This document shows, in pieces, positions 1,563 to 41,362 of a stretch of DNA of 42,842 nucleotides. The notes below the pieces were generated by a model, which saw nothing but the letters and a program-made list of their open reading frames with translations, did not search any database and was not told the DNA's origin. The stretch lies in the UHGV virus genome UHGV-0138423, one strand, 5' to 3'. A program made the translations under genes and the position numbers. The first letter of the stretch is position 1; each line of letters begins with the position of its first letter. Source of the DNA: a virus.

Positions 1563-3986
1563 TCACTGGCCAGACAGCGATGCCAGCATGAAATAATGCA
1601 GCTCATCATTCCTTACAGACATTATTTCACCAGCCTCCCTGACCAGCTTGCGCTCTCCGGTATCGTATTCTTCCATTGTAAGGAGTCCGTCAGGACCAAG
1701 CTCCATACGAGTCCCGTAAACCACTTCATATTCTGCCGGATATTCATCACGACACAAAATACCGTAATCAAAAGCGTCCAGCCCTTCCTCAGAGAAGACC
1801 TTCTGTACGTCCTGAGCAATCACTCCTACATGCCATCTGGCTGCGTTCCCTTTGCTGGACACTGCATCCCTGAAACGGAACCGACAGATATACCCGAGCA
1901 GCTTTCTGGCAACCCTTTTTTCTGCATCCGACAGAATTGTTTCGTCCTGTTTATGAGTCCGGTCTGATGTACTGATACTTCCCGTAGCTGAATAAACCTG
2001 TGCGGGTCGCCATGAGGCATAACCGATCGAATACGTATTATCTGTATAAGGGCGGAGATTTCCTGATGAATCTATGCGCCATCTCTTTTCTCCTCCTGTG
2101 GCATTTGCATCCTGATTCGTTGCAAAATCAATCACTGTCGCTGACCTGAACACAGATGAACCACCGCCAATTACCAGCGTGTTATTCCCCTCTGATGCCT
2201 GTTGGTCAACTACCAGTATTTTATCCTGATTTTTACCTGAACCACTTTTCGAGGCAGCGATAATACGATTAAACTGATCCTCACCATCGCTCTTTTGTGC
2301 GATGGTGATAACATTGGACCAGATTGCCTCTCTTTGTCGCTGAAAACCATATTCTCCGCTGTCTGTAGTGACAGCTTTATATTTTATTCCACCTTCAGCT
2401 GACTCCTGCGTTATATAGAATGTCTGGTTATTAGCATTCTTGATGAACACATAATTGTCAGCAGGAATGTCATTTCCACTCAGATCTTTAATCGGTGTCG
2501 TGGTTGTATGCAGACAAAACCATTTCTGACTCACAGAACGCATATATGCCAGAATTTCAGACAGGGATGTGAATACCGTCCCCAACACCGGGTTTACCAA
2601 CCCCTGGGCACTACGGGGAAATGTTCCAATACTGGCATGAGACACATCAAACCCCGTGTACAACCAGGCTGCCTGACGAAAATCAATAGCATCTCTGCCA
2701 GTACTGAACTCTTTCATCAGAACAATTCCTTTCTGATAAGCCTGTGGTAACCCACGCTCCAGAAAGATATAAAGCGAATATATACTGCCGCCGTCGTCAG
2801 AAATACAAATTCCTTCGTTCTCAATGCGCGAAGGTGTAAAACCCTGCCTGGTAAGCACATCTATCATTTTTTGGGGATGAAGAATGGATTCCTGCTGCTT
2901 TACTCCATCCGGAGAAAAGACCTTAACCCCCTGAAACTGGTTAAATCCGGCTGATGCCCCGGTATTAAAATAGCCACCATAAGAACAGGCAATATAATCG
3001 TCTCCCACAGCAATTCCCTGACGTTTTGTGAAGCGTCTTGCATAGCTGTCTGTGCTTTCCGTGATATATCCGGAATCATGCAACGGTAATGTGAATGTCC
3101 CTGTCCGACGAAACTGAAAATCATACACCGCAAATACTGTGCGGGTGATCAGGCCTCCCACTTCCGGCGCTGACTGTTCAACCACCCAGCGGTTTTTACG
3201 ATAGCTGAACTGGTTGTAAACACCGACATCATGTTCATCAATTAACGGCAATACTGAACCAGAAATTGCCCCATCAAGCGAAAACTGTTTCAGTAATCCA
3301 TTTTCTCCTGACATGAACAAACGTAATCCACCGTAATCCGTTGTCACCACAAGGCCTTCGCTGACAACGCCACGACCTCCATTATCGACATAATAATATC
3401 CCTCATATTCGCCGGATGTTGTGTACTGAACTATAACGTTCCGTGTCTGCTTTGGCTCAACGGTATAACTCAGATAGATTTTTTCTCCTGTCACCACAAA
3501 TCCCTGTGGATACATATATTCCGCACCAGACTGAGCAGCCAGCACCGTATCGTAGTCCGGGAATAATAACGGCAATTCCATTAAGACACTACGGGAATGG
3601 TTAGTGTACAGATTGTTCAATGAACCAGCTTTTACATCCTGTAACCCCAGATTTTCAAGAGCGCGTTCTACCGTGCCATCCGATTTGATATCGCCAAACG
3701 GATTCTTGCGGCTCAGGTATTCAACAGCAAACCCCGATCCCAGCAATTCAACAAAACCGGGCAGATCACCATTATCAAGCACATCCCGTTGCGTTTTATC
3801 ACTTACAAACTGGGCCAGAGCTGCAGCAATAAAGCTGGCCTGCCGAATAACCTTATTGACTTGCGCACTGGATGCTTTACCTGCTGTAAATCCGGATAAA
3901 AGCGCAGGCAACGCTTCCCATTCCTCCTGCGACATAACATTGGCATTTTTACCCGTTGCGAATGCTTTAAAGTCATTTTTTGCCAT
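1563..3986 (-). CDS. Tail fiber / tailspike protein with C-terminal intramolecular chaperone (peptidase S74-like) domain
   Basis: 807 codons from the ATG at 3984-3986 (MAKNDFKAF...), overlapping the upstream stop as TGATG. C-terminal ~110 aa (..RVARKLLGYICRFRFRD...HVGVIAQDVQKVFSEEGLDAFDYGIL...) resembles the self-cleaving chaperone domain of endosialidase-type tail fibers. Last gene of the tail operon. Confidence 0.75.
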   Translation of the reverse strand: MAKNDFKAFATGKNANVMSQEEWEALPALLSGFTAGKASSAQVNKVIRQASFIAAALAQFVSDKTQRDVLDNGDLPGFVELLGSGFAVEYLSRKNPFGDIKSDGTVERALENLGLQDVKAGSLNNLYTNHSRSVLMELPLLFPDYDTVLAAQSGAEYMYPQGFVVTGEKIYLSYTVEPKQTRNVIVQYTTSGEYEGYYYVDNGGRGVVSEGLVVTTDYGGLRLFMSGENGLLKQFSLDGAISGSVLPLIDEHDVGVYNQFSYRKNRWVVEQSAPEVGGLITRTVFAVYDFQFRRTGTFTLPLHDSGYITESTDSYARRFTKRQGIAVGDDYIACSYGGYFNTGASAGFNQFQGVKVFSPDGVKQQESILHPQKMIDVLTRQGFTPSRIENEGICISDDGGSIYSLYIFLERGLPQAYQKGIVLMKEFSTGRDAIDFRQAAWLYTGFDVSHASIGTFPRSAQGLVNPVLGTVFTSLSEILAYMRSVSQKWFCLHTTTTPIKDLSGNDIPADNYVFIKNANNQTFYITQESAEGGIKYKAVTTDSGEYGFQRQREAIWSNVITIAQKSDGEDQFNRIIAASKSGSGKNQDKILVVDQQASEGNNTLVIGGGSSVFRSATVIDFATNQDANATGGEKRWRIDSSGNLRPYTDNTYSIGYASWRPAQVYSATGSISTSDRTHKQDETILSDAEKRVARKLLGYICRFRFRDAVSSKGNAARWHVGVIAQDVQKVFSEEGLDAFDYGILCRDEYPAEYEVVYGTRMELGPDGLLTMEEYDTGERKLVREAGEIMSVRNDELHYFMLASLSGQ

Positions 3987-23447: not shown

Positions 23448-23727
23448 CACCCGCAACAGCCACTTTGATATCTTCCTGGGTTCTCTGTGACTCCAGTGCG
23501 ATCTGCTGTTTTGCATGCTGGTTAGCCTCTATAACTGTATTGATGATTTGCAGAGATTGCAGGACGTTACTGGTAATGGCTGTTGCAGATTCAGCGTTTC
23601 GTACAGCCTCATCAGCACGCTCCTTTTCGTGCTGATATTTGCTGTAGTAATGCCCGGCAGACCAGATAAAAGAACCGATGACGGTAACAAAGAAGGCAAC
23701 AATAACCAGCTTATATCTCAGCTTCAT
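23335..23727 (-). CDS. Inner-membrane spanin Rz-like
   Basis: 130 aa; N-terminal transmembrane segment (LVIVAFFVTVIGSFIW) followed by a charged helical periplasmic domain; immediately downstream of the endolysin. Confidence 0.6.
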   Translation of the reverse strand: MKLRYKLVIVAFFVTVIGSFIWSAGHYYSKYQHEKERADEAVRNAESATAITSNVLQSLQIINTVIEANQHAKQQIALESQRTQEDIKVAVAGDDCAVRIVPSGAVKRLHEYANGIRVGAGRSVTSQSDG

Positions 23728-24187
23728 TTACCACCCCACCAGCTTCTTTAAATCGGGAAATCAGGTCACCGATTCTATGTTCATACTGACCGTAACCTGC
23801 ACCAGGTAACGACGCCCAGATATTGCTGCAACGGTCGATTGCCTGACGAATATCGCCGCGGTCAATCATCGGTAAAGCGCCACGCTCTTTAATCTGCTGC
23901 AGCGCTACAGCATCCTGGCTTTCTGGAGAAAAATCTTTCAGACCAAGTTGCTTGCGGTAGGCATCCCACCAGCGTGAAAGAAGCTGGTAACGTCCGGCGG
24001 CTGTTGATTTGAGTTTCGGATTTAGCGTGACAAGTTTGCGGGGGTGATCGGAGTAATCAGTGAACAGTTCGCCACCGACAATAACATCATAACCGTGATT
24101 TCTGGTTTTCTGCCGTCCGTTATCTGTTCCTTCTGACCATGCCACCATATCAAGGAAAGCTTTACGCTGGGAATTAAGTGTCTGCAT
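23711..24187 (-). CDS. R: Endolysin, lambda R-type lytic transglycosylase
   Basis: 158 aa; ..NQRKAFLDMVAWSEGTDNGRQKTRNHGYDVIVGGELFTDYSDHPRKLVTLNPKLKSTAAGRYQLL.. is near-identical to lambda R as I recall it. Confidence 0.85.
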   Translation of the reverse strand: MQTLNSQRKAFLDMVAWSEGTDNGRQKTRNHGYDVIVGGELFTDYSDHPRKLVTLNPKLKSTAAGRYQLLSRWWDAYRKQLGLKDFSPESQDAVALQQIKERGALPMIDRGDIRQAIDRCSNIWASLPGAGYGQYEHRIGDLISRFKEAGGVVNEAEI

Positions 24188-24190
24188 TAA

Positions 24191-24550
24191 TTACTCCTTA
24201 TGCGCACCGAACTTGTTACCGATGACCCTCATTGCCGCACCACGAATAGCATCAACACCAATCAGCCCCACCCCACCACCAATGGCAACAGAAAGTGATT
24301 TAGGCCATCCGACATACTCAAGCGCGGATGCAAAGGTCAGCGTCAGGGCGCCACAAAGCAAAATCTCAAGAGTTTTTCGTTTCCAGCCCCCACCACCGCC
24401 AAAATAGGCGATGCGCAAACCAGCCATAACGATCGACATAATCACTGCGCCCAGCGGAGTGTCTCCACGCCACCAGCTCTGAAACAACTCCAGCCAGTCC
24501 GGCCAGGTATTTGGGTTATGAGGCATTTCATCATCTCTCACCTCGCACAT
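24191..24550 (-). CDS. Putative holin
   Basis: Small protein with 2-3 hydrophobic transmembrane segments and a charged C-terminus, directly upstream of the endolysin; two candidate starts (M1 and M9), possibly a dual-start holin/antiholin arrangement. Confidence 0.5.
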   Translation of the reverse strand: MCEVRDDEMPHNPNTWPDWLELFQSWWRGDTPLGAVIMSIVMAGLRIAYFGGGGGWKRKTLEILLCGALTLTFASALEYVGWPKSLSVAIGGGVGLIGVDAIRGAAMRVIGNKFGAHKE

Positions 24551-24571
24551 ATCGCGGGTGCAAATTGAGGG

Positions 24572-24611
24572 AATAAAAAATCCCCGAATATTCCAGGAGC
24601 GGAAACGGGGA
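24572..24611 (-). terminator. Intrinsic terminator just upstream of the holin gene
   Basis: Minus-strand RNA UCCCCG-(19 nt loop)-CGGGGA followed by UUUUUUAUU. Confidence 0.45.
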
Positions 24612-24650
24612 AAGGCGTTGCACTAAATGGGCCTGTCTGCGGCCTTAAAT

Positions 24651-24674
24651 AAAAAACCCCGGCAAATGCCGAGG
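24651..24674 (-). terminator. Intrinsic terminator in the ORF6N-lysis intergenic region
   Basis: Minus-strand RNA CCUCGGC-AUUU-GCCGGGG followed by UUUUUUA. Confidence 0.45.
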
Positions 24675-24895
24675 TCAGTTAATCGTTGCCGCTGTGAGTG
24701 CCGCGGCGCACTATCTCTTTATCAGGCCACTTACGCGTTAAACCGGGTGCCAACCGTAACTCAGTGATGCTTTACGCTTCCTCTCCCTCACTACGTCGCC
24801 ATGGGAGCCCGACCAGATTAACGCTGTCGTCACGTTGCCAATATATGGCATCCAATGCATTCTTTTTATTTAGCTATTTCATTTTTTCTATCCGT

Positions 24896-24927
24896 CAGAA
24901 ACAACAAAACCCGCTCAATGGCGGGTT
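24896..24927 (-). terminator. Intrinsic terminator after the ORF6N-domain gene
   Basis: Minus-strand RNA AACCCGC-CAUUGA-GCGGGUU followed by UUGUUGUUU. Confidence 0.6.
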
Positions 24928-25022
24928 CTGGTAAAGTTCATGCGCTTGGTTCGCCTCGCGATACAGCTTTGCGAAGCGTACCGGAATTGAAGCAGTTTAT
25001 GGCTAAAATTGCAAGAACTTTT

Positions 25023-25604
25023 TTAAAGCTGCATCAGCCTTTCCACCAGTTTATCTCTGCGAACAACAAACCAACCATTGGCTCTCGCCAGTTCCAGCCA
25101 TGACTCAAGGGAAATAACAATATCATCATCCCGCAACTGAATTGTGGAAACAGTGACACCGCCTCGCTGATAACAGAGAACTCGCGTGTCGTAACTTTTC
25201 TGGCATGAAACTGACGCTGACGGATCCTTTTGTCTGAAATAGCAGTCTTCCAGCTTTTCGAACACATCCCACGCCTGATCAGTTTCGAGCATTTTGGCAT
25301 GGCGGGCTGCTCCGCGTTCTGTCCAGAGGATGAGGGAGCGGGCTTTCGGGGAAATTTGTAACCCTCTTAAAGATGGTTGCAAATTTTGTGAGTAGTTTAA
25401 AGCTACCCGCAAATTTTTCAGGGCATCACCAGCCACTTTGAAAAAATGCTTTCCTTCAATAAAGCGCTCAGCATTTCTGGCGTAGTTATTTTGAATGTTC
25501 TTAACTTCAGCACCGTACAACTGCGCCAAAAGTTCGGTGGTAATAACAGGAATCTGGTTATGGGTGATCGGAGAGAGAGTTTCAACAGAAATTTGAGTTG
25601 TCAT
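25023..25604 (-). CDS. KilA-N/ORF6N-domain protein (antirepressor-like), late-region moron
   Basis: 193 aa; N-terminal half (..ITTELLAQLYGAEVKNIQNNYARNAERFIEGKHFFKVAG...LWTERGAARHAKMLETDQAW..) matches the ORF6N DNA-binding domain signature; C-terminal ~80 aa unassigned; has its own downstream terminator. Confidence 0.65.
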   Translation of the reverse strand: MTTQISVETLSPITHNQIPVITTELLAQLYGAEVKNIQNNYARNAERFIEGKHFFKVAGDALKNLRVALNYSQNLQPSLRGLQISPKARSLILWTERGAARHAKMLETDQAWDVFEKLEDCYFRQKDPSASVSCQKSYDTRVLCYQRGGVTVSTIQLRDDDIVISLESWLELARANGWFVVRRDKLVERLMQL

Positions 25605-25764
25605 AATGACGCCCTCTGGTGGTTTCTAAACCATCACCACCGTCAGGTTCCTAATCATCGGGTGGTGAGACGTACAGGGTTAGGAACTACCGGGAAACCA
25701 ACCGGCGAGCTTTTCAGCTCCCCCATACGCCCCACCATAATTCAGATGTGCGCGTGCATACGAC

Positions 25765-25789
25765 AATAAAAAACACGCTCGCGGCGTGT
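25765..25789 (-). terminator. tR'-like intrinsic terminator downstream of the late promoter
   Basis: Minus-strand RNA ACACGC-CGCGA-GCGUGU followed by UUUUUUAUU, about 60-80 nt downstream of the predicted pR' start. Confidence 0.55.
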
Positions 25790-25851
25790 GTCTGTCGCGG
25801 TCTCTATCCGGGGTTCCTAATCCCGACGCCAGATTTTGCTGGCGCGTGAGG

Positions 25852-25881
25852 AATATAGCCCCGAATAACAGATTGAGTCAA
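25852..25881 (-). promoter_or_regulatory. pR'-like late promoter overlapping the Q stop codon
   Basis: Minus strand: -35 TTGACT (plus 25876-25881), 18 nt spacer, -10 TATATT (plus 25852-25857); same position relative to Q as lambda pR'. Confidence 0.45.
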
Positions 25882-26432
25882 CAGACGGTTTTTGAATCCC
25901 CGGAAGAGAATGCATCACGCATCGGCAGATAGAGCATAAACTCTGCCATTTTCAACCACGCATCTATGCGATTACGGCACGTGGCGTAACACCACTCAGG
26001 GTGTGAATCATTCAGCAATTCAGCCATTTTTCGCTTAGTCATCCCCCTCCCTTCATATCGTTGCCGGAGGATACAAATCAATCCTGGGTGTTCTGCCAGC
26101 ACTTCACTAATCACACGATCAATGCATAACGCCTCTGCATCAGTACAATGCACCAGCCAGCTTTTTTGCTTGCCGTTGATCATATCCCGTAAAAAAGCCT
26201 CAAGTTCAGGTTTGTCCAGACCTGCTTTTTTCATCCTCCGGAGCGCCTCGTTAATTGCCGTTTTTGTCAGCTTTTTAGAGGTCAGCAACTGGTTAAACAT
26301 ATTTCCCGTCTTACCGCCGCCAATATACGACCAGCGCCCCCACATGCGCAGTTTTCCCTGAATCCAGACACTTTCCAGCGTGGTGAGACGAAGGTGTTCC
26401 CCGCTTTTGCCTGTATTTGTTGGGTAAATCAT
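25878..26432 (-). CDS. Late-gene antitermination protein Q
   Basis: 184 aa from the ATG overlapping the upstream stop (ATGA); position between nin-like genes and the pR'/tR' unit; Cys/His-containing C-terminal part consistent with Q-family proteins. Confidence 0.6.
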   Translation of the reverse strand: MIYPTNTGKSGEHLRLTTLESVWIQGKLRMWGRWSYIGGGKTGNMFNQLLTSKKLTKTAINEALRRMKKAGLDKPELEAFLRDMINGKQKSWLVHCTDAEALCIDRVISEVLAEHPGLICILRQRYEGRGMTKRKMAELLNDSHPEWCYATCRNRIDAWLKMAEFMLYLPMRDAFSSGDSKTVC

Positions 26433-26719
26433 AAATAACCTTCCTTTCTCCAGATTTCTTGTGTGCGAAAAACACCTTCTGCATGCATCAGGCGTAATTC
26501 TTCTTTGGTGTAATCGCTGGTTTTTACCCGCCCGTCGATTAAATCGTGGCATGAGCTACAGGCAATCGCTGCCTGCATATCGTGTGGTTTTGTCGCTGTT
26601 CCGCACGTCCCCGCCAGCCTGTAATGCGCCAGCACAGAAGTTTCGGGATTGTGGTTGCAGTAGCCAGGAATTCTGACGGTGCACATCTGCCCCCGCGCCG
26701 CTTTACGTAAATCCACCAT
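26429..26719 (-). CDS. nin-region protein, DUF1364 (YbcO-like)
   Basis: 96 aa with paired Cys motifs (..CTVRIPGYCNH...CSSCHDLID..); typical gene immediately upstream of Q in lambdoid prophages. Confidence 0.6.
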   Translation of the reverse strand: MVDLRKAARGQMCTVRIPGYCNHNPETSVLAHYRLAGTCGTATKPHDMQAAIACSSCHDLIDGRVKTSDYTKEELRLMHAEGVFRTQEIWRKEGYL

Positions 26720-27318
26720 TACGCAAACTCCAGTAACTGCGCGGCCACATTTTCGACTTCCTCCGGAGAGGAAAATTTACGGAACAGGATCCAGTTCCAC
26801 AGTACATTCAGTACAGATTTATAAACCTGCTGAAACTCGGTTTCGTCCATATTCGCAAAAGCGATGGATTTCGCCCGACGCCCACGGCTACCGTCCGGAT
26901 AAAAATGCTCGGTGTAAAATCCGGCCTGAATGGTTACCCACTCGCGGAAAGCCTCAAACGACTTTAGCAATGCCATATCCCGGGTTCTGCGTGTCGCAAC
27001 TGTATTCAGATATTGCTCTGCGGCTTCGCTCAGAGCTGGCGTATGTTCCCGGCCTACAGATTCACACAGGTAATCAACGAATCCTGAAACCAGTTTTCGT
27101 TCGCGAGGCGTGATCGCCCCACCGTTCGGAGTCCAGTAATCGAATCCCAGTTGCAGGAGTTTGAAAAAACGCTTGTGGAATGCGTAGTTACGAACGCGTT
27201 TAAAATCAGCGTGTATCCACTCGCCTATTTTGATTTGATGCAGAAAATCGCAACTCTCCGGCGTCGCCGGGAGAAGTAATCCGGAAGAGGTTTGTTTGAC
27301 CAGTTGTATATGCGCCAT
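26719..27318 (-). CDS. nin-region protein, DUF1367 (YbcN-like)
   Basis: 199 aa ORF translationally coupled to the DUF1364 gene; position and size as in DLP12 ybcN. Confidence 0.6.
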   Translation of the reverse strand: MAHIQLVKQTSSGLLLPATPESCDFLHQIKIGEWIHADFKRVRNYAFHKRFFKLLQLGFDYWTPNGGAITPRERKLVSGFVDYLCESVGREHTPALSEAAEQYLNTVATRRTRDMALLKSFEAFREWVTIQAGFYTEHFYPDGSRGRRAKSIAFANMDETEFQQVYKSVLNVLWNWILFRKFSSPEEVENVAAQLLEFA

Positions 27319-27389
27319 CGTAGTTCTCCGCTGGCGCAGTAGAATGGGTGTTCAGCCCGTTATGTAGTATAACAGAATTAATGCCAATA

Positions 27390-27641
27390 CTAACAGGATG
27401 CTCTGACTCGTAATTCATCCAGCAGTTTATCATTTCCCATAATGTCACTTACCCTCATCGGTAAAAAAATTGCCTTTCGACCATTACGATACATCATTGA
27501 TTTTGGGTTTTCAGGGAAGTAATCCATTTCGACTATAACTGACAGGTCATCACGACGTATGACTGCGTATTTGCAACTAAATAGTTTCTTTATTTTTTCC
27601 ACGATGCCTCCGAGTTTATAAGTACAAACGGTTATATCCAC
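27390..27641 (-). CDS. Hypothetical small protein
   Basis: 83-codon ORF starting with GTG in the track; an internal GTG preceded by GGAGG (..GGAGGCATCGTGGAAAAA..) is a more likely start (~70 aa). Confidence 0.35.
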   Translation of the reverse strand: MDITVCTYKLGGIVEKIKKLFSCKYAVIRRDDLSVIVEMDYFPENPKSMMYRNGRKAIFLPMRVSDIMGNDKLLDELRVRASC

Positions 27642-27877: not shown

Positions 27878-28033
27878 TTACTCCTCAGGTTCGTAAGCTG
27901 TGAAGACAGCGACCTCCGTCTGGCCGGTTCGGAGTCGTACCTCGCAGAGGTCTTTCCTCGTTACCAGTGCCGTCACTATGACGGTTAAACAGATGACGAT
28001 CAGGGCGATTAACATCGCCTTTTGCTGCTTCAT
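27878..28033 (-). CDS. hok: Hok/Gef-family type I toxin
   Basis: 51 aa from the internal ATG: MKQQKAMLIALIVICLTVIVTALVTRKDLCEVRLRTGQTEVAVFTAYEPEE, essentially identical to E. coli HokD/RelF as I recall it. Confidence 0.8.
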   Translation of the reverse strand: MKQQKAMLIALIVICLTVIVTALVTRKDLCEVRLRTGQTEVAVFTAYEPEE

Positions 28034-28292
28034 AGCCTGCTTCTCCTTGCCTTTCGGCACGTAAGAGGCTAACCTACGTGTGTAGAGCATAGATATGGCC
28101 TCAGATTAATGTTAAGCGTCTTGCCGGACGCGTAATGTTAACTGGGGCTTTTCTCTATCTGCCTTTTGGTGTTCATGCCTGAGACAGATAGCCTCAAGCA
28201 CCCGCAGTTATTCTACTTAACTAAGATTTCCCCGCAAACCGTTTTTGTCCGGCACAGTAAATATCCAACTAAACCAATGGCGTTCGCTGTAT

Positions 28293-33439: not shown

Positions 33440-33862
33440 TCAATGCACTACGACAGAATCGCCGGGCGATCCTCCGCCGCTGAAATGTGCTTTCCGGTAA
33501 ACGGCCTGGACTGCATCATCATGCGCATCAATTGCCGTACTCAACGCTTCCTGCGCCGCCAGTAATGCACGGCGTTCCAGGGTATCGAAGATGCAGAGTC
33601 GGTGACGCAGCTCGCGCGGAAGAATTGCCAGAACCGCAGGGATCAGTTTCTGAATTTTTTCCCTTTGCGCTTTCGTTTCACCTTTCAACCAACGGTGATA
33701 GATATTCTGCTGATTGTTCCAGTCCTTGCCTGGTACCAGGGGCAATTCGCCGCCCCCCTGGCGCAGATATTCTTCAGTAATTGCGTTAGCGACCCACGCC
33801 TGCCCTTTTTCGGCTGCCAGGGCTAACAACACTGATTCGATGTGCTCATGCCTGATTTTCAT
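33440..33862 (-). CDS. ydaT: YdaT-like protein (cII-position, Rac toxin-module homolog)
   Basis: 140 aa translationally coupled to the Cro-like ydaS homolog; synteny racR / ydaS-ydaT as in Rac. Confidence 0.6.
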   Translation of the reverse strand: MKIRHEHIESVLLALAAEKGQAWVANAITEEYLRQGGGELPLVPGKDWNNQQNIYHRWLKGETKAQREKIQKLIPAVLAILPRELRHRLCIFDTLERRALLAAQEALSTAIDAHDDAVQAVYRKAHFSGGGSPGDSVVVH

Positions 33863-34197: not shown

Positions 34198-34617
34198 ATG
34201 GAAAAAGAAAACGAAAAAATTGCCGCTAGTAGGCTCAATGACAAAATTGCAATGCGTCTTAAAGAGCGCAGGCAGAAGCTTGGTTTATCTCAAGGAAAAC
34301 TTGCTGAAATCTGCGGATGGACGCAATCGCGTATAGGTAACTATGAGGCGGGCAGCAGAAATGTTGGAGTGCATGACGCTGTCGTATTGGGAAAGGCACT
34401 TGGCATATCTCCTCCTGAGCTCCTCTTTGGAGAACAGGAATCTTCTGAATTGTGGTTAAATGAATCCCAACGAAAACTTCTTGAGTTGTTTAACCAGCTA
34501 CCGGGCTCAGAACAACAACGAATGATTGAGCTATTTGAAGTCCGGCTAAAAGAAATCGATGAGTATGTAGAAAAATATTTGAGAGGCAGGCTTAAAGATA
34601 ATCCCCCACCGGAGTAA
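34198..34617 (+). CDS. racR: Prophage repressor (RacR-like, cI-position)
   Basis: 139 aa with N-terminal XRE-type HTH (..LGLSQGKLAEICGWTQSRIGNYE..) and a C-terminal helical domain; divergent from the Cro-like gene. Confidence 0.75.
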   Translation: MEKENEKIAASRLNDKIAMRLKERRQKLGLSQGKLAEICGWTQSRIGNYEAGSRNVGVHDAVVLGKALGISPPELLFGEQESSELWLNESQRKLLELFNQLPGSEQQRMIELFEVRLKEIDEYVEKYLRGRLKDNPPPE

Positions 34618-40986: not shown

Positions 40987-41181
40987 ATGCGGTATGAAAA
41001 AGTCAAACCATGTCCGTTTTGTGGTTGTCCATCAGTAACGGTGAAAGCCATTTCAGGATATTACCGCGCAAAGTGTAACGGATGCGAATCCCGAACTGGC
41101 TATAGTGGAAGTGAAAAAGAAGCACTCGAAAGATGGAATAAACGAACTACTGGAAATAATAATGGAGGTGTTCATGTATAA
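40987..41181 (+). CDS. ralR: Restriction alleviation protein (Lar/RalR family)
   Basis: 64 aa: MRYEKVKPCPFCGCPSVTVKAISGYYRAKCNGCESRTGYSGSEKEALERWNKRTTGNNNGGVHV; Cys4 zinc-ribbon; matches Rac RalR as I recall it. Confidence 0.8.
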   Translation: MRYEKVKPCPFCGCPSVTVKAISGYYRAKCNGCESRTGYSGSEKEALERWNKRTTGNNNGGVHV

Positions 41182-41362
41182 AATTACTGCCACTATTGAA
41201 AAGGAAGGTGGCACTCCTACTAACTGGACAAGGTACTCAAAAACAAAATTAACCAAATCAGAATGCGAAAAAATGCTCTCAGGTAAAAAAGAAGCAGGCG
41301 TTTCCAGAGAGCAGAAAGTAAAGCTGATAAATTTTAATTGCGAGAAGCTTCTGTCCTCGTGA
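41174..41362 (+). CDS. ydaC: YdaC-like small protein (DUF1187)
   Basis: 62 aa from ATG after GGAGG (MYKITATIEKEGGTPTNWTRYSK...); position between ralR and xis as in Rac. Confidence 0.5.
   Translation: MYKITATIEKEGGTPTNWTRYSKTKLTKSECEKMLSGKKEAGVSREQKVKLINFNCEKLLSS

Follow-up and report, generated by a model that had tools for sequence, protein, structure and literature searches.

The locus at 25881-25023 on the minus strand of UHGV-0138423, a virus genome of 42,842 nucleotides (nt) that was analysed at full length (the window), is probably a self-contained, mobile antirepressor cassette resembling P1 immI and the E. coli counterpart of Gifsy-1 isrK-anrP, lying between a Q-like antiterminator gene and the late promoter of that Q. 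The locus, which ends with a gene that we call ant (25023..25604; 193 amino acids (aa), ATG start; a homologue of anrP), represents a new allele of a type of switch that is already known and has been studied by experiment; it departs from the alleles compared, Gifsy-1 and Stx-phage ones among them, in its recognition sequences, and it has no coupling open reading frame (ORF). The evidence obtained here comprises the parts of the cassette, their homology, three-way covariation and linkage patterns; promoter activity, read-through, the translational block, activation by IsrK and induction by AnrP are drawn from experiments on Gifsy-1 and P1. Features lie on the minus strand unless stated otherwise.

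The protein assignment was supported by several searches. Residues 12-105 of Ant (25571-25290) matched the Pfam domain ORF6N (PF10543; E 3.4e-20, 72.6 bits, cut-off 27.8), and the full-length protein matched PHROG 2379, annotated as 'anti-repressor' (E 2.6e-91). All 12 named PHROG matches belong to anti-repressor or transcription-regulation families, the strongest being anti-repressor, and 3 more are of unknown function. By BLASTP, Ant and Gifsy-1 AnrP share 54% identity over their full length (193 aligned columns, 12 gaps, E 4e-68). An earlier reading of the window from its letters alone (the original prediction) had proposed an antirepressor-like gene with an ORF6N domain, of the KilA-N clan, just downstream of Q, and the Pfam and PHROG matches bear this out. 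As a gene ant is ordinary, given that identical or near-identical copies were found on well over 1000 contigs of E. coli, Shigella and Salmonella.

The 273 bp upstream of ant hold a promoter and two RNAs with matching recognition sequences. A consensus scan placed the cassette promoter, PisrK, at 25852..25881, with TTGACT (25881-25876), an 18-bp spacer and TATATT (25857-25852). The match alone is meaningless, as the scan found 1 promoter-like site compared to 1.7 ± 1.2 in shuffled sequences; the assignment gains weight only because the hexamers are conserved in all 17 distinct leader sequences that we collected from the window, 31 IMG/VR loci, phage pPE4, VT2-Sakai and Gifsy-1, including the experimentally studied Gifsy-1 isrK promoter. 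In these alleles the -10 hexamer is invariant and the -35 hexamer is TTGAC followed by T, G or A. Scanning 23500-27500, and then the whole window, with Rfam detected isrK, c4-a1b1 and C4 above their gathering scores (GA) on the strand of ant and in the expected order upstream of it, as is also the case before Gifsy-1 anrP and VT2-Sakai ant. IsrK is a 78-nt small RNA (sRNA) at 25768..25845 (RF01394, 69.4 bits, GA 50), overlapped by the c4-a1b1 motif (RF03163) at 25858-25805. It carries the target sequences b1 (UUAGGAAC, 25820-25813), in the loop of its hairpin 2, and a1 (GAGACCG, 25804-25798), and it ends in an intrinsic terminator at 25789-25768. The C4-type antisense RNA follows at 25658..25742 (85 nt; RF01695, 67.0 bits, GA 45) and is predicted to fold at -42.9 kcal/mol into a 17-bp outer stem and two inner hairpins, with a recognition loop a' (UGGUUUC, 25700-25694) and an 8-nt single-stranded b' (GUUCCUAA, 25687-25680). 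The translation-initiation region of ant (25605..25657) holds second copies of both targets, b2 (UUAGGAAC, 25654-25647) and a2 (GAAACCA, 25626-25620), and the Shine-Dalgarno sequence GAGGG (25616-25612), 3 nt before which a2 ends. The promoter hexamers after Q, the terminator-like hairpin (25789-25773) and the structured 5' leader of the original prediction are therefore all present, but its labels pR' and tR' were not confirmed: the first two are the promoter and terminator of IsrK, and the structured leader is a C4 antisense RNA.

Covariation was assessed in an alignment of 10 leader alleles. The proposed pairs were standard pairs in 451 of 451 cells, and 13 pairs had changed on both sides. 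All 27 pairs of the C4 stem were kept, 9 of them with compensatory changes, and the b1:b' and b':b2 contacts were each 100% paired, with compensatory changes in 4 of the 8 pairs of each. The covariation score was reached in none of 500 shuffles, and when the partner was displaced by 1-3 columns pairing fell to 35-47% for the whole structure and to 23-47% for b':b2 alone. Outside the window, b reads UUGGCGU, UUAGCAC or UUGGAAC and a reads GUACGGA, UCGAAAC or AUCACCG; there are four types each of b and a, reassorted into 8 combinations that are self-consistent, and the three copies of a site agree in every allele except one recombinant. The a' loop forms 6-8 contiguous bp with cognate a1 and a2, compared to 3-5 bp for most non-cognate pairs, and in alleles of the L035 type the Shine-Dalgarno sequence lies within a2. 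This three-way compensatory variation implies that the RNA contacts of the IsrK/C4/ant leader are under continuing selection. The recombinant, locus L016 (3552-4050), has a 492-nt leader in which b2 (UUGGAAC) mismatches b1 and b' (UUAGCAC), breaking the three-way rule; it also has an Rfam match to sRNA-Xcc1 between C4 and a different downstream gene.

The same contact has been defined genetically in Salmonella. In Gifsy-1, the mutations G28A/G31A and C162U/C159U define a regulatory helix, b-I, formed by G28:C162 and G31:C159 (PMC4825925). When we numbered the Gifsy-1 transcript from its A start, G28 and G31 fell in b1 and C159 and C162 in b'. Because the mutated positions fall exactly on these two sites, the published helix b-I and the P1-style b1:b' contact are the same thing.

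The Gifsy-1 locus isrK-orf45(STnc1160)-anrP-isrJ (Hershko-Shalev et al. 2016, PMC4825925) shares with the window the order of an overlap between Q stop and promoter, IsrK, a C4-type RNA and an ORF6N gene, and its gap of 272-273 bp between Q and the antirepressor gene is like that of the window. A processed Salmonella RNA of ~80 nt, STnc1160, has been reported at the position of C4. The Gifsy-1 isrK promoter transcribes anrP in the uninduced lysogen, with control exerted at translation (PMC4825925, Table 1A). The antirepressor message arises when transcription reads through the terminator of IsrK, and expression of AnrP alone induces Gifsy-1 and raises transcription of the antQ operon (PMC4825925). 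The two loci differ in several respects. The Gifsy-1 Q is of the 82 type, whereas that of the window belongs to DUF1133; b is UUGGCGU in Gifsy-1 and UUAGGAAC in the window, and a is AUCACCG and GAAACCA, respectively. Gifsy-1 orf45 is a 45-codon frame that starts in C4 and overlaps the start of anrP at ATGA, an arrangement present only in the Gifsy-1 allele; the corresponding frame in the window, owing to a 1-nt difference in b', has 27 codons and stops 50 nt before ant, and in the other alleles it has 27-36 codons and is unconserved. The C-terminal domains of Ant and AnrP are weakly similar. Finally, the element downstream of the antirepressor gene is isrJ in Gifsy-1 and, in the window, a 129-bp element that we call seg129; no Rfam match to isrJ was found in the window.

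The P1/P7 immI system (c4, icd, ant1/ant2; Citron and Schuster 1990, summarised in PMC8198154) has the same architecture of one promoter, upstream a1/b1, C4 with a'/b', downstream a2/b2 at a ribosome-binding site and an antirepressor gene, and in it, too, differing recognition sequences give differing specificities. In P1, C4 derives from the antirepressor transcript and blocks expression by pairing with short targets, and the gene that it controls encodes an antirepressor that binds C1 (PMC8198154). Three differences set the window apart: icd, the small ORF between c4 and ant in P1/P7, translation of which is what C4 directly targets and to which ant expression is coupled, is absent, and the target abuts the ribosome-binding site of ant itself; the upstream copy of the targets is a separate, terminated small RNA (IsrK); and the host element is a lambdoid prophage, as opposed to a plasmid prophage.

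To place the cassette relative to late transcription, we compared loci that share its Q. The Q-like antiterminator of the window (25878..26432; 184 aa from MIYPTNTG) matched Pfam DUF1133 (E 6e-108), weakly Phage_antitermQ (E 3e-6), and PHROG 753, 'anti-termination protein Q-like'. In 80 IMG/VR loci encoding this Q at 86-100% identity, seg129 was present without exception: 31 have the order Q, cassette, seg129, and in the 49 cassette-less loci seg129 begins 2 bp after the Q match. In the window seg129 spans 24896..25024, with hexamers TTGCAA (-35, 25014-25009) and TTCAAT (-10, 24991-24986) separated by 17 bp, a nearly invariant core at 25001-24952 (CTTG..TTTT...CATAAACTGCTTCAAT-N8-GCTTCGCAAAGCTGTATCGCGAGGCGA) that contains a leader hairpin at 24978-24952 (leader fold z = -2.6), and, past a variable stretch, an intrinsic terminator at 24930-24899 that holds the hairpin 24930-24905. 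The stem of this terminator has four or five versions among the loci, each complementary within itself. A search of IMG/VR with the core motif returned 117 loci; Q ends 21-24 bp upstream of the core in 63 of these, and 41 have Q and then ant before the core, with ant ending 24 bp upstream. The remaining loci are truncated contigs, carry insertion sequences (IS) in ant or retain a Q remnant. A full-text literature search for the core sequence of seg129 found nothing. We also considered whether a deletion that truncated Q could explain cassette-less relatives such as vB_EcoS-666R9, and rejected this: their Q is of full length, shares 85% identity with that of the window and diverges at the C-terminus, and 49 of the 80 loci have this arrangement.

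Because it abuts Q when the cassette is absent and is linked to the DUF1133 Q throughout, seg129 is likelier to be the pR'/tR' unit, and is the best candidate for the pR', ~80-nt leader RNA and tR' of this Q. Its layout is that of lambda pR'-6S RNA-tR' and of StxS in Shiga toxin (Stx) phages (PMC7547250): after Q come hexamers, an RNA of ~80 nt, a terminator, a variable slot and the lysis genes. It has no sequence similarity to the late leaders of lambda or StxS, and its start site and Q dependence are predictions. The likeness of the IsrK unit to lambda-type late leaders, by comparison, is superficial, as the unit is untied to any one Q family. With seg129 as candidate pR'/tR', ant would lie upstream of the late promoter and the true variable slot would be 24895-24551. 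The original prediction had put ant in the slot equivalent to that of stx, after tR' and before the lysis genes, and had given it a terminator of its own; in our analysis ant lies upstream of the Q-linked terminator element, and the hairpin in question, 24930-24905, is part of seg129.

The promoter-IsrK unit itself was found in other settings. In VT2-Sakai (orf34/ant/roi), homology with the window begins exactly at the -35 hexamer of the cassette promoter and covers the promoter, IsrK, C4 and the ORF6N part of ant, with ~85% DNA identity in the leader, 80% protein identity over residues 1-125 and the b allele UUGGCGU; the VT2-Sakai protein has 244 aa and a differing C-terminal domain. In that phage the nin region carries the unit, flanked by ninE-like and roi/ninG-like genes; the Q ~2.5 kilobases (kb) further downstream is unrelated and is followed by a tRNA-stx region of its own. 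In Gifsy-1 the unit follows an 82-type Q. Since it occurs both in the nin region and after unrelated Q families, the promoter-IsrK unit travels with ant and not with Q.

A parallel pattern was seen with the Gifsy-1-type Q. Among 80 loci encoding it, 45 are cassette-less and have isrJ 43-53 bp after Q; in the other 35 a cassette starts at the Q stop, and isrJ mostly lies ~840-880 bp after Q, past anrP (further downstream in two loci, undetected in three). Taken together with the seg129 pattern, this means that two unrelated Q families have the cassette between Q and a Q-linked unit of promoter, short RNA and terminator. In Gifsy-1 a good promoter, TTGCAA-17-TATATT, stands directly after the anrP stop and before IsrJ (L005 33406-33480). 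From this arrangement, the Salmonella sRNA IsrJ is probably the 6S-like leader of the Gifsy-1 late promoter; a literature search found no paper linking IsrJ to a late promoter. At three junctions the upstream stop codon, of Q or of ant, falls inside or against the next -35 hexamer (25876-25881 in the window, where the TGA of Q sits inside the -35 of the cassette promoter; L084 ~3538-3543; L005 ~33508-33516). The TGA is contained in TTGACT and in TTGATT, and in Gifsy-1 it overlaps TTGCAA by one base. These overlaps suggest module exchange at these points.

In the switch that we propose, the cassette promoter would fire without Q. The majority of transcripts would end at the first terminator and yield the 78-nt IsrK with a1 and b1, and transcripts that read through would contain the 85-nt C4 RNA followed by the ant message, from which C4 is probably cut, judging by P1 and by STnc1160 of Gifsy-1. 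Pairing of a' and b' of C4 with a2 and b2 beside the Shine-Dalgarno sequence would block translation of Ant in the lysogen. IsrK may compete for C4 through the same target sequences or may refold the leader, so that a rise in IsrK would free translation. Ant would then inactivate the prophage repressor, for which the candidate is a 139-aa protein encoded on the plus strand at 34198..34617 (Pfam HTH_3, E 5e-13), allowing expression of the early operon and Q; Q in turn would act at seg129, the putative pR', for terminator read-through into the lysis and morphogenesis genes. The candidate repressor is a short protein with a helix-turn-helix (HTH) only, with no S24 peptidase match in Pfam; its gene is divergent from a cro-like HTH gene, and its C-terminal motif resembles that of the Gifsy-1 repressor. 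Non-cleavable repressors need an antirepressor for induction, as in the Gifsy phages (cited in PMC4825925). Because the window has no counterpart of orf45 or icd, and because a2 abuts the ant Shine-Dalgarno sequence (and contains it in some alleles), we infer that direct occlusion of the ribosome-binding site is the simplest reading of translational control here.

Several observations weigh against this scheme. The coupling ORF that Gifsy-1 requires, orf45, is unconserved, so that the published route of activation cannot apply unchanged, and neither the icd coupling of P1 nor Rho has a counterpart in the window. The c4-a1b1 match is marginal, at 47.8 bits only ~1 bit over its threshold (GA 46.7). 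RNAcofold of C4 with the ant leader or with IsrK returned trivial end contacts only and did not reproduce the loop-loop contacts, a type of pairing within folded RNAs (pseudoknot) that the program cannot model; whole-molecule duplexfold unfolds everything and is uninformative, and the duplex energies of short segments, -10 to -17 kcal/mol, are only indicative. The hexamers of seg129 are weak (8 of 12 matches, with no A at position 2 of the -10) and were not called by the consensus scan. Given the predicted DNA binding of ORF6N, the target of Ant might be DNA and not a repressor. Lastly, Sy et al. describe IsrK as the product of an antitermination-regulated promoter (PMC7547250).

This last description fits an alternative in which the promoter directly after Q is a Q-dependent pR', IsrK its terminated, 6S-like leader and ant a moron or the first of the late genes, made only after antitermination, as the original prediction had held. 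The position next to Q, the resemblance of promoter, short RNA and terminator to lambda pR'/6S/tR', and the fact that read-through of the IsrK terminator yields the antirepressor message in Gifsy-1 all speak for it. We nonetheless consider it unlikely, since VT2-Sakai and many Stx phages carry the same promoter and IsrK (~85-90% identical from the -35) in their nin region, a long way from a Q that is unrelated, elsewhere the pair follows two unrelated Q families, and 49 of the 80 loci encoding this Q have no IsrK unit. Each Q protein acts specifically on its own promoter, yet this unit is not tied to one Q. Each Q family instead comes with a conserved neighbour of its own, seg129 or isrJ, and this element abuts Q in loci without the cassette; if PisrK were pR' the 49 cassette-less loci would be left without a late promoter. 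Moreover, the homologous promoter transcribes anrP in uninduced Gifsy-1 cells, that is, in a lysogen without induced Q, which for this homologue contradicts late-only expression; expression of ant only after Q antitermination is thus unsupported.

A different objection concerns the protein. Ant could be a DNA-binding regulator or host-killing protein of the KilA/Bro/Rha type that acts on phage or host promoters and is gated by the RNA switch: ORF6N belongs to the KilA-N group of predicted DNA-binding domains, close relatives are named 'KilA-N DNA-binding domain-containing protein', there are weak fold matches to the winged-helix-like Ski/Dachshund domain, and for AnrP the Gifsy-1 paper reports only raised antQ-operon transcription and induction. 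We regard this as improbable, because the named PHROG matches are uniformly to anti-repressor or transcription-regulation families, in P1 the gene under C4 control encodes a C1-binding antirepressor (PMC8198154), the resident repressor candidate lacks a cleavage domain and thus requires something to inactivate it, and AnrP expression alone is enough to induce Gifsy-1. It is far less probable still that the cassette is a decaying, now inactive remnant in a defective prophage. Some relatives do have an IS inside ant or only a Q remnant, and the coupling ORF is broken relative to Gifsy-1, but the ant ORF is intact and present in identical or near-identical form on the many contigs noted above, the compensatory variation points to continuing selection on the RNA contacts, and the window has a full set of integrase, recombination, replication, lysis and packaging genes.

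The target of Ant may be specified by its C-terminal domain (~residues 138-193, 25193-25026), for which the original prediction could make no assignment. This still stands: no match was found in PDB, BFVD or Pfam, even though the fold is confidently predicted. The AlphaFold2 model of the whole protein (mean pLDDT (predicted local distance difference test) 79, from a 27-sequence alignment) consists of the ORF6N fold, a long helical linker and a separate C-terminal unit; modelled alone, the C-terminal 70 residues reach pLDDT >90 across ~50 residues and form a beta-hairpin followed by two helices. The linker sequence LILWTERGAARHAKMLETDQAW.VFEKLEDCYF is near-invariant in the family and helical in the model. 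When the C-terminal 81 residues were used in a word-indexed protein search, nothing but fragments of Ant itself came back; an exhaustive search with the domain returned 81 clusters, in which it also occurs alone or behind Rha or Bro-N domains. The loci with the DUF1133 Q differ more in the leader and the N-terminal part of Ant (72-100%) than in its C-terminal part (97-100% conserved), suggesting that the C-terminal domain is a modular partner-recognition domain joined via the conserved linker. The repressors of the window and of phage pPE4, which have the same Ant C-terminal domain, are 62% identical, a value that is compatible at most with recognition of the repressor by this domain. In two relatives (L154 and L177), an IS transposase within ant splits the ORF6N domain from the rest of the protein.

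These results show that a promoter, short RNA and terminator after Q are not automatically pR' and tR'; here they would constitute an independent RNA switch for an antirepressor. The reassignment changes the timing and purpose of Ant, from late-stage cargo to a trigger of induction. It also joins two separate literatures, those of Gifsy-1 IsrK and of P1 c4/ant immunity, with a b1:b' contact that has diversified into several specificities, and it supplies the DUF1133 Q family, as yet uncharacterised, with a candidate late promoter that can be tested, and gives the sRNA IsrJ a simple proposed origin. More tentatively, and as a proposal that we hold with clearly less confidence than the cassette itself, RNA-gated antirepressor cassettes could dock preferentially at the junction between Q and the late promoter in at least 2 unrelated Q families, and co-resident prophages with matching alleles could cross-induce or cross-silence one another through IsrK-type decoys and C4. 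As a corollary, IsrJ would be the 6S-like late leader of Gifsy-1 and IsrK the a1/b1 decoy of a C4 system, not the product of a late promoter. The question bears on predicting which prophages, including Stx phages, are inducible independently of SOS and which engage in cross-talk.

The surroundings of the cassette are those of a lambdoid prophage, with NinB, YbcO, the DUF1133 Q-like gene, ant, a lambda-family holin, lysozyme, Rz and terminase in this order. The holin is the first lysis gene (24191..24550, probable start ATG 24526; Pfam Phage_holin_3_1, E 3e-27; PHROG 126). Between the candidate tR' and the holin lies the variable slot (24551..24895), in which no recognisable gene and, in the scan of the window, no Rfam RNA family was found; a tRNA scan of the window also found none. 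The slot contains the hairpins 24676-24655 and 24598-24582, in agreement with the two further terminators before the holin in the original prediction. Together with 25789-25773 and 24930-24905, they are terminator-like hairpins that precede the holin start; the scan found 6 terminator-like sites compared to 2.0 ± 1.6 in shuffles, only ~2.5 standard deviations above. The original prediction had also called for a survey of what other prophages carry between tR' and the holin. Past the seg129 terminator similarity ends, and the sequence of the slot is common to only a few related loci; in other loci tRNAs, STnc100, AgvB or ORFs come next.

A prophage of E. coli strain C25 (NZ_CP127314) matches the window at 100% identity. 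The whole 2.1-kb arrangement was present in 26 of 5426 complete E. coli genomes, and parts of it in 2414. Several other features of the prophage were observed. It is marked as Rac-like by its RecE/RecT-like genes, by a YdaT-like gene in the place of cII and by the RalA antitoxin sRNA (41180-41358, Rfam 212 bits), which adjoins the integrase. A hok/sok-type toxin-antitoxin pair is located at 28028-28203 and 27878-28090 (Rfam sok, 117 bits; Hok-like 70-aa ORF). Lastly, PP818812.1, deposited as 'Actinobacillus phage vB_Apl-pPE4', is ~92% identical to the window across NinB-Q-cassette-ant, and its host attribution looks doubtful.

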